Positions 12,080-13,777 of a stretch of DNA of 39,508 nucleotides are shown piece after piece. The notes beneath the pieces were generated by a model that was not told the origin of the DNA, made no database searches, and saw nothing but the letters and a program-made list of their open reading frames with translations. The first letter of the stretch is position 1. Each line of letters opens with the position of its first letter. Source of the stretch: Escherichia phage RDN8.1; sequence record MN414250.1. One strand, 5' to 3'. The translations under genes were made by a program, and so were the position numbers.

Positions 12080-13777
12080 ATGTCATACGATGACCAAGAC
12101 GACGAGAGTGTCTTTCTGTATCACACCCAGTGTCCAGACTGTGGGTCCTCTGATGCCAATGGTGTTTACTCAGACGGACACATGTACTGCTTCTCCTGTG
12201 ACCCTTCAGTCGCATGGAAGAAAGGAGACATGGAGTTGACCGAGGGATACAAACCCTCAGGAGGTAGAAAGCAAGTGAGCAATCTGTTAACGTTCGGTGA
12301 GAACGCTGGACGATATGTCCCACTACCAGCCCGTAGTCTCAGCATGGAGATATGCAAGAAGTACAGCTACTGGGTAGGTAACATGGGTGGCAAGATGGTT
12401 CAGGTCGCTGATTATTACGACAGGTCCGGGACCAAGGTAGGGCAGAAAGTCAGAGACGCTGAGAAGAACTTCACGGCTATCGGTAGCGTCAAGTCTGACA
12501 TGCTGTTCGGCTCTCAGCTCTGGAACGGTGGCAAGAAGATAGTCATCACCGAGGGTGAGATAGACGCTCTGTCTGTGGCTCAGGTGCAGGACGGTAAGTA
12601 TCCAGTGGTCTCGCTTCCGTTAGGCTCCAAGTCTGCGAAGAAAGCGATGGCTGCGAACCTTGAGTACCTCGACCAGTTCGAAGAGATAATCTTGATGTTC
12701 GACATGGATGAACCGGGTCGTCAAGCCATTGAGGATGCAGCTCCAGTCTTACCAGCGGGTAGGGTCAAGGTAGCGTTCATCAACGGGTACAAAGACGCCA
12801 ACGCTGCGCTTCAGGCCAAGGACTTCAAGGCCATCACTGATGCAATCTGGAACGCTAAACCTTTCGTCCCGGCTGGTGTGGTATCAGCGGCAAGTCTGAA
12901 AGACCGCACACGAGAGGCAATGATTAAGGCAGAGACTGAAGGTCTCATGTTCTCGTCATGCACAACACTCAACGCTATGACCCTCGGTGCGCGAGCTGGT
13001 GAGCTTATCATGGTGACTTCAGGGTCTGGCATGGGTAAGTCCACATTCGTCCGTCAGCTCCTCTTAGAGTGGGGCAGGGGAGGTAAGCGAGTGGGGATGG
13101 CTATGCTGGAAGAGGCAGTCGAAGAGACGGTGCAGGACCTTATGGGTCTGGACAATAACGTCCGTCTCCGTCAGTCCAAAGAGCTGAAAGAGGCAATCCT
13201 TCAGGATGGGCGATTCGACGAATGGTACGACAAACTGTTCAACGACGATAAGTTCCACCTGTACGATTCATTCGCTGAGTCAGAAGAAGACACCTTGTTC
13301 GCCAAGCTGGCCTACATGGTCGACGGGCTGGACTGTGACGTGATACTGCTGGACCACATCTCAATCGTGGTGTCTGGCATGGAAGATAACTCAGATGAGC
13401 GTAAGACCATCGACCGCATTATGACCCGTCTCAAGAAGTTTGCGAAGACTAAGGGTGTAGTGGTCGTGGTAATATGCCACCTAAAGAACCCGGAGAAAGG
13501 TAAATCGCATGAAGAAGGACGGCCCGTTTCAATTACTGACCTTAGAGGCTCTGGTGCTCTACGGCAGCTTTCTGATACTATTATTGCCTTGGAGCGCAAT
13601 CAGCAAGGTGATACTCCTAATGTCGTGCAGCTTCGTTTGCTTAAGTGTCGCTTTACGGGCGATACCGGGCTGGCTGGATTCCTTGAGTACAACAAGTCGA
13701 CCGGGTGGCTCGAACCGATTAGCTCACCTTCGGAAGGCGGAGGAGAGGATAGCTCGTGGGACGAAAGTGGTTTCTAA
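12080..13777 (+). CDS. DNA primase/helicase (T7 gp4 homologue); probable internal helicase-only start at 12230
   Basis: 565 aa; zinc ribbon [13 protein letters not shown], Walker [12 protein letters not shown], long blocks match recalled T7 gp4; ATG 12230 in frame after AAAGGAG. Confidence 0.97.

Follow-up and report, generated by a model that had tools for sequence, protein, structure and literature searches.

The window (the whole stretch of 39,508 nucleotides analyzed here) belongs to Kayfunavirus, the K1F-like phages of the T7 group (Studiervirinae). A megablast search with positions 12000-13800 matched 224 phage records, nearly all of them from Kayfunavirus and with a top identity of 93%; the matched Kayfunavirus phages infect Escherichia, Salmonella, Citrobacter and Enterobacter. 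Gene 4 lies within this region and encodes, in a single polypeptide, the T7-type succession of a Cys4 zinc ribbon, a TOPRIM RNA-polymerase domain and a DnaB-like helicase (Table 1). Pfam profiles detected in the 565-aa product are Helic-prim_T7_N (PF21268), Toprim_2 (PF13155) and DnaB_C (PF03796). BLASTP gives 63% identity to T7 gp4, and the top matches in the PDB are the T7 gp4 entries 6n7i (E = 1.5e-231), 1q57 and 1nui. The full-length start at 12080 is preceded by the Shine-Dalgarno sequence UUAAGGAGU (-8.7 kcal/mol, aligned spacing 5). The promoter just upstream is one of 11 copies of a direct-repeat family in the window with the consensus ACTAAACTATCACTATAGGGA, and a promoter is annotated at the equivalent position in the records of EcoDS1 and CR44b.

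Table 1. Positions of gene 4, its upstream promoter and the internal signals considered (window coordinates)
Feature	Position	Strand	Basis and remarks
Phage RNA-polymerase promoter copy ACTAAACTATCACCTTAGGGA	12007..12027	+	just 5' of gene 4; direct-repeat family member
Gene 4, full-length primase/helicase (gp4A)	12080..13777	+	ORF; 565 aa, 62.2 kDa
Cys4 zinc-ribbon motif (C18, C21, C37, C40)	12131..12199	+	translation; aligns with T7 C17, C20, C36, C39
AAAGGAG, Shine-Dalgarno-like	12221..12227	+	-8.7 kcal/mol to 16S 3' end; 2 nt before ATG 12230
ATG, Met51	12230..12232	+	in frame; would yield 515 aa, 56.6 kDa
TTG, Leu53, in-frame alternative	12236..12238	+	spacing 7 from AAGGAG
Hairpin GAGGG-ATACAAA-CCCTC, 5 bp	12242..12258	+	MFE folds; abuts AGGAGGT
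AGGAGGT, internal Shine-Dalgarno	12259..12265	+	Ser60-Gly61-Gly62 codons; -11.6 kcal/mol; identical to the ribosome-binding site of T7 4B
GTG, Val66, best-supported putative gp4B start codon	12275..12277	+	in frame; 10 nt past GGAGG, 9 nt past AGGAGGT
Proposed gp4B (helicase-only, without zinc ribbon)	12275..13777	+	500 aa, 55.0 kDa

Candidate translation signals in the linker after the zinc ribbon

The orthologous T7 gene, in which the domain order is alike, produces both a 63-kDa primase-helicase (4A) and a 56-kDa helicase (4B). The start of the shorter protein has been experimentally established as Met64 (PMC1616965, PMC2910064), at coordinate 11754 of the T7 record, and its ribosome-binding region is TCAGGAGGTAAACCAATG. 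In this region T7 reads AAA CCC TCA GGA GGT AAA CCA ATG, such that GGAGGT is furnished by the Ser-Gly-Gly codons, with 6 nt between it and the ATG. The corresponding stretch of the window is AAA CCC TCA GGA GGT AGA AAG CAA GTG AGC; thus TCAGGAGGT is retained at 12257-12265 exactly as in T7, again from Ser-Gly-Gly codons in the linker that joins the zinc ribbon to the RNA-polymerase domain, and is followed by AGAAAGCAA and then by an in-frame GTG. In a BLASTP alignment T7 Met64 faces Gln65 of the window protein, one residue from Val66, the codon of which is this GTG, and in the PDB match to 1q57, the T7 56-kDa protein, position 4 of the chain aligns with window residue 68. A MAFFT alignment further places Val66 in register with the internal Met of phages with the linker 'GGDKMSNLL'. 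Hence, the GTG at 12275 is the positional homolog of the T7 4B start, lying within one residue of it, and the product predicted from it would be without the zinc ribbon only. The two sites differ in the start codon (GTG against ATG) and in the spacer past GGAGG (10 nt against 7). Furthermore, the window has an additional upstream in-frame Met51 with a badly spaced AAGGAG, which is absent from T7.

It was this upstream codon, the ATG at 12230-12232, that the preliminary description took for the probable start of a helicase-only gp4B, on the grounds that it follows AAAGGAG by 4 nt, lies just downstream of the zinc ribbon and mirrors the T7 arrangement. The ATG is indeed in frame with the 565-aa gp4 ORF as codon 51, and is found ten codons past the last zinc cysteine. 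The AAAGGAG is present as well, but the gap to the ATG is 2 nt (AC) and not 4. The positional argument does not hold: BLASTP pairs Met51 with T7 Lys50 and not with Met64, and in the ungapped alignment Met51 precedes the start of T7 4B by 14-15 residues.

In comparing the candidate sites we measured aligned spacing, counted as the nucleotides that separate position G8 of the UAAGGAGG register (16S rRNA) from the start codon, with spacings and pairing energies computed by duplexfold against ACCUCCUUA. Among 55 annotated starts of T7 the aligned spacing is mostly 4-9, with one case each at 1, 10 and 12; among 53 annotated starts of phage CLB_P1 it is likewise mostly 4-9, with one each at 2, 3 and 15 and three at 10. 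Published work places the optimum at about 7 nt for a GGAGG core (PMC5303271) or at an aligned spacing of 5 nt, deviations from which cost energy (PMC3936740). The T7 4B start has an aligned spacing of 7. In the window the GTG at 12275 has one of 10, at the long end of the usual range, and the ATG at 12230 has one of 1, essentially outside it; the same AAAGGAG stands at 7 from a TTG at 12236. The AGGAGGT that precedes the GTG belongs to the strongest Shine-Dalgarno class in the genome (-11.6 kcal/mol). Of the window's 417 in-frame NTG codons at internal positions, just two are accompanied by a match of -10.3 kcal/mol or better at a spacing of 4-10, and gene 19.4 of CLB_P1 carries an identical CAGGAGGUA, also at spacing 10. 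As a chance control for the upstream site, 198 other internal in-frame ATGs in the long ORFs of the window were inspected. Within 22 nt, four of them are accompanied by a Shine-Dalgarno-like match just as strong, and in two of these cases (32762 and 34499) the spacing is likewise too short, at 1-2; the motif at 12230 is therefore within chance expectation.

Partition-function folds of four context windows gave unpaired probabilities of 0.53-0.95 for the GTG at 12275 and about 0.5 for its Shine-Dalgarno sequence, compared with approximately 0 for the ATG at 12230 and about 0.3 for its own, values that describe naked RNA, where in the cell ribosomes translating gp4A traverse the same stretch.

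Conservation of the internal site

Gene 4 loci of the T7 group were drawn from IMG/VR and INPHARED, their N-termini aligned, the codons inspected and the motif counted. Of 94 distinct N-terminal sequences, 89 have a GGAGG with an in-frame ATG or GTG 4, 7 or 10 nt past it (88 by regular expression and one more, L060, by codon inspection), with 11 different linker peptides among them. The motif is missing from four distant outgroups of 56-60% identity and from the Kosakonia phage Kc166A. The first Gly of the motif is invariably encoded by GGA, which accounts for only 17% of Gly codon usage in these genes. GTG is the putative internal start in Kayfunavirus, in Yersinia phage AP10 and in Morganella phage MP2, and the 10-nt spacing is common to Kayfunavirus and a large group of Klebsiella przondoviruses. 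The putative sites of the przondoviruses ('GGNYGM'), AP10 ('GGKRV') and MP2 ('GGDKV') thus resemble that of the window in having GGAGG in Gly-Gly codons with an in-frame ATG or GTG, the przondoviruses sharing the 10-nt spacing and the other two the GTG, whereas their spacers and linker peptides are different and an adjoining hairpin is not evident. As judged from these alignments, the ribosome-binding site of T7 4B is conserved across many genera of the group, and the persistence of GGAGG with an in-frame ATG or GTG across genera argues that a helicase-only isoform is under selection. In contrast, the N-terminal alignment has no Met at the position of Met51 in any other genus of the T7 group.

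Within Kayfunavirus we compared 32 distinct full-length gene 4 sequences with 80-92% nucleotide identity to the window. Both the GGA of Gly61 and the GTG of Val66 are invariant in 31 of the 32, although these represent few independent lineages and the conservation statistics overstate their independence. In these 31 Gly61 is always encoded by GGA and Val66 always by GTG, and the internal site has a Shine-Dalgarno energy of -10.3 to -12.6 kcal/mol at spacing 10. Synonymous diversity averages 0.256 over the gene but drops to 0.064 over codons 60-67, which places these codons in the lowest 0.9% of windows of equal size, and codons 60-76 fall in the lowest 0.2%; codons 47-53, around Met51, stand at the 44th percentile. 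Invariant codons are seen in 4 of 47 columns of conserved Gly, Gly61 among them, and in 7 of 37 columns of conserved Val, including Val66. Synonymous sites over the GTG site thus appear to be under selection, with the reservations that the lineages are few and that Kc166A, the most divergent member of the genus, has lost both the GGAGG and the GTG. Kc166A has kept AAAGGAGACATGGAGTTG; we do not take this as a sign of constraint, because it is a run of six identical codons, one of 8 such between the two genes.

The upstream motif shows a different pattern. Gly49, encoded by GGA in the window, is encoded synonymously by GGC in an SH4-like clade and by GGG in PRF-SP5, which turns AAAGGAG into AAAGGCG, AAGGGCG or AAAGGGG in these phages; the best match 5' of ATG51 weakens to -7.8 kcal/mol in PRF-SP5 and further, to between -4.2 and -5.4, in the SH4-like clade. 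A look-alike of the internal site at 13076-13093, where the window reads GGA GGT AAG CGT GTG (-12.5 kcal/mol, spacing 7), served as a negative control: in the relatives both its Gly and Val codons vary freely, with a diversity of 0.68-0.70.

The constrained interval 12257-12310 contains no copy of the ACTAAACTATCACTATAGGGA promoter family and is covered by no + strand ORF, the - strand ORFs over it being mechanical only; hence, neither a promoter nor a long overlapping ORF accounts for the constraint. A coupling to a +1-frame ORF resembling T7 gene 4.1 (12090 or 12153 to 12239) was also considered and discarded, its possible starts having no usable Shine-Dalgarno sequence (-3.1 kcal/mol at 12153, and 15 nt between Shine-Dalgarno and start at 12090). 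The gp4 codons that this ORF overlaps have no reduced synonymous diversity. A degenerate DPSVAWK pattern gave little but chance matches in metagenomes, and in IMG/VR it yielded no new Kayfunavirus diversity.

A proposed nested start and the competing readings

We propose that gene 4 of the window holds a nested translation start, as does T7 gene 4. Ribosomes would bind the internal AGGAGGT in the interdomain linker past the zinc ribbon and initiate at the in-frame GTG at 12275, with Val66 read as fMet. The outcome would be a 500-aa, 55-kDa protein without the zinc ribbon, made beside the 62-kDa gp4A from 12080 and, by analogy with T7 gp4B, expected to act as a hexameric helicase incapable of template-directed priming. 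From sequence comparison, it is very probable that the phage, like T7, produces a truncated gp4 that is a helicase only, and we consider it likely, with reasonable rather than high confidence, that this form begins at GTG 12275 by way of AGGAGGT. The general idea of an internally initiated gp4B, put forward in the preliminary description, is thus upheld by homology to T7, but with a start codon other than the one named there. We infer the use of this codon from the positional homology and conservation set out above; a modest efficiency is predicted for it, given a GTG at a 10-nt spacing. GTG is a weaker initiator than ATG, and the ratio of 4B to 4A may therefore be lower than in T7. Natural internal GUG starts are found in E. 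coli, in which the N-terminally truncated isoforms IF2-beta (infB) and ClpB-79 arise from in-frame internal GUG codons. These cases share with the proposed gp4B an internal Shine-Dalgarno sequence with GUG, two isoforms from one ORF and the loss of an N-terminal domain in the shorter one; the proteins are unrelated, however, and the cases are a precedent only for the efficient natural use of an internal GUG.

The same conservation might be read without any internal initiation, only full-length gp4 being made and 12257-12310 being kept by RNA structure, mRNA stability, pausing at an internal Shine-Dalgarno-like sequence or recent recombination. Several observations accord with such an explanation, which we nevertheless regard as unlikely. 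The constraint runs about 30 nt beyond the GTG and a covarying hairpin adjoins it, but structure or pausing would not need what is seen across the 11 linker peptides, namely that an ATG or a GTG invariably stands 4, 7 or 10 nt past GGAGG. The site is lost from Kc166A, and the GTG with its long spacing would be modestly efficient; against this, the look-alike at 13076-13093 is unconstrained. In T7, gp4B is reportedly dispensable. Its role in vivo has been described as unknown (PMC2910064), but the homologous T7 site is itself a proven start (PMC1616965).

Other readings retain an internal start and place it upstream. A short form beginning at ATG 12230, either through AAAGGAG or by reinitiation once the +1-frame ORF has terminated at 12237-12239, seems to us quite improbable. 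The ATG is the strongest type of start codon and is present in 32 of 32 distinct Kayfunavirus sequences, but this count is uninformative, as Met has a single codon, and the position corresponds to Lys50 in T7, with no Met there in any other genus. Its AAGGAG pairs at -8.7 kcal/mol, but at an aligned spacing as short as that of 1 of 55 annotated starts in T7 and 0 of 53 in CLB_P1, where the 30S subunit favors about 5-7 nt (PMC3936740, PMC5303271). Changes to GGC or GGG have abolished this Shine-Dalgarno sequence in PRF-SP5 and the SH4-like clade, the codons around it are of ordinary synonymous diversity, and two other internal ATGs of the window carry a similar motif and spacing by chance. Kc166A keeps AAAGGAGACATG despite the loss of the downstream GGAGG and GTG, but the codon run that it has in common with the window here is one of 8 such in the gene. 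As for reinitiation, the +1-frame ORF does terminate 7 nt downstream of the ATG, but it is without a credible start of its own. The codon is also predicted to be paired, with the hairpin at +12 to +28 from it. That it is the one chosen in existing records speaks in its favor as well; we return to these records below. We regard the ATG at 12230 as probably just one of the internal methionine codons of gp4; if it serves as a start at all, that would be a minor one.

The better-spaced codon for the same AAGGAG (12222-12227) is the TTG at 12236 (Leu53), which overlaps the stop of the +1-frame ORF as TTGA and would give a product of 513 aa. We hold initiation there to be very improbable. The spacing of 7 at -8.7 kcal/mol is near optimal and the TTGA is reminiscent of the ATGA at which T7 gene 4.1 and 4B overlap, but the codon relies on an AAGGAG that is not conserved, in a region without synonymous constraint and with the hairpin opening 6 nt downstream. 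Despite the six codons available for Leu, 30 of 32 sequences keep TTG; against this, the codon is CTG in one sequence (L014) and TTT in the CR44b group, and TTG starts are rare, with 0 of 57 annotated in T7 and 1 of 57 in CLB_P1. Minor initiation at ATG 12230 or TTG 12236, driven by the upstream AAGGAG, is possible.

The hairpin that abuts the conserved Shine-Dalgarno sequence is fully paired (100%) in 15 distinct Kayfunavirus sequences. Its middle pair alternates between G:C and A:U, in 8 and 7 sequences respectively, through the change of Glu55 from GAG to GAA together with that of Pro59 from CCC to CCT, both synonymous. The covariation concerns one pair and probably one or two evolutionary events, and stands outside the core argument. 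T7 has an equivalent GAGGG-N14-CCCTC at the same place, just 5' of its Shine-Dalgarno sequence, with a loop of 14 nt against 7 in the window; no such hairpin was seen in the other T7-group genera compared. It falls inside the footprint (+12 to +28) of a ribosome initiating at 12230, and could be an element of a standby site, a concept described elsewhere (PMC3936740). A more elaborate arrangement may be imagined, with two nested internal starts and three isoforms, of 62 kDa (from 12080), about 56.5 kDa (from ATG 12230 or TTG 12236) and 55 kDa (from GTG 12275), the hairpin at 12242-12258 acting as a switch: as a standby platform it would favor GGAGG and the GTG, occlude the upstream site and so set the ratio of primase-helicase to helicase. 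We offer this as a speculation with little likelihood of being correct. In a milder form, the 4B annotations may use the wrong codon throughout the genus.

Annotation of the short form in public records

As stated in the preliminary description, an internal 4B start is expected rather than novel, being an ordinary feature of a well-known T7-type system; understanding of the replication system is unchanged by the present analysis, the added value of which is a correction of annotation only. The public records of K1F-like phages are inconsistent in where gp4B begins. The records of K1F (AM084414), CLB_P1, CR44b and SH4 place it at Met51, that of SH3 at Met35, inside the zinc ribbon, and a B form has been placed at the equivalent of Met102 in SH5 (PMC4925675); many other Kayfunavirus records have no B form annotated. 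The Kayfunavirus proteomics that we found deals with virion proteins only (PMC4925675). The gene of K1F is about 92% identical to that of the window, and its gp4A/gp4B annotation was copied in CLB_P1, CR44b and SH4. These Met51 assignments were made by analogy only; whereas they agree with the choice of ATG 12230 in the preliminary description as the correct 4B annotation, that codon is poorly supported by comparison, which favors Val66. Comparative evidence thus points to a GTG that has mostly been overlooked by gene callers and annotators. One exception is the CR44b record, a note in which mentions for its 4B an 'alternative start codon Val at position 16', a residue that is the equivalent of Val66.

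Elements flanking the proposed internal start of gene 4

The internal Shine-Dalgarno sequence of gp4, the primase/helicase, is directly preceded by a GAGGG/CCCTC hairpin, which is common to T7 and Kayfunavirus and differs between them in its loop, of 14 nt in T7 versus 7 nt in Kayfunavirus. Within Kayfunavirus the stem shows one compensatory G:C to A:U change, and the hairpin was absent from the other T7-group genera in which it was sought. A possible role is that of a standby-site element in internal initiation. Where T7 has gene 4.1, the window carries a short +1-frame ORF, whose terminal TGA (12237-12239) overlaps the in-frame TTG at 12236 (Leu53) as TTGA, similar to the T7 arrangement, in which the stop of gene 4.1 and the ATG of 4B overlap as ATGA. 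No usable Shine-Dalgarno was found for this ORF at 12090 or 12153, and dual-coding constraint was not in evidence.

Features of the gene 4 region and promoter copies (window coordinates unless stated)
Feature	Coordinates	Description
Promoter copies (examples)	12007-12027, 18287-18307, 22537-22557	consensus ACTAAACTATCACTATAGGGA
49-codon ORF	12090-12239	+1 frame relative to gp4; same place as T7 'gene 4.1'
Hairpin GAGGG-loop-CCCTC	12242-12258; T7 (NC_001604) about 11720-11743	directly 5' of internal Shine-Dalgarno

Other candidate starts and divergent gene 4 records

A second strong Shine-Dalgarno with a GTG lies in frame within gp4 at 13076-13093 (GGA GGT AAG CGT GTG, Gly334-Val338; -12.5 kcal/mol, spacing 7 to the Val338 GTG), with an ATG two codons further on. 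As this site is not conserved across the 32 Kayfunavirus sequences, it is probably a chance occurrence, and it was used as the negative control for internal-start conservation. The ATG of Met102, in the window (12383) and in relatives, follows GGGTAGGTAAC, whose Shine-Dalgarno-like match is moderate (-7.7 kcal/mol, spacing 4). In Citrobacter phage SH5 the 'B' start is annotated at the Met102 codon (PMC4925675), and a product begun there would be devoid of part of the primase N-terminal subdomain.

Kosakonia phage Kc166A (locus L111, MW258709), the most divergent Kayfunavirus, has PSAGRKLAG in place of PSGGRKQVS within gp4 codons 55-70. Both the GGAGG and the GTG are gone, and a T7-type gp4B may therefore either be missing from this phage or be initiated at another codon. 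Public records of two further loci, L003 (PV615263) and L116 (OP272490), present gene 4 as several CDS fragments; the splitting is probably an artefact of frameshifts in sequencing or assembly.

Promoters and genome ends

The phage RNA-polymerase promoter family is represented by 11 copies across 734-34040, one of them directly upstream of gene 4. The window ends carry an exact 300-nt direct repeat (1-300 and 39152-39451), with 57 nt of window beyond the right-hand copy, an arrangement that fits a complete T7-like genome with its terminal repeats.
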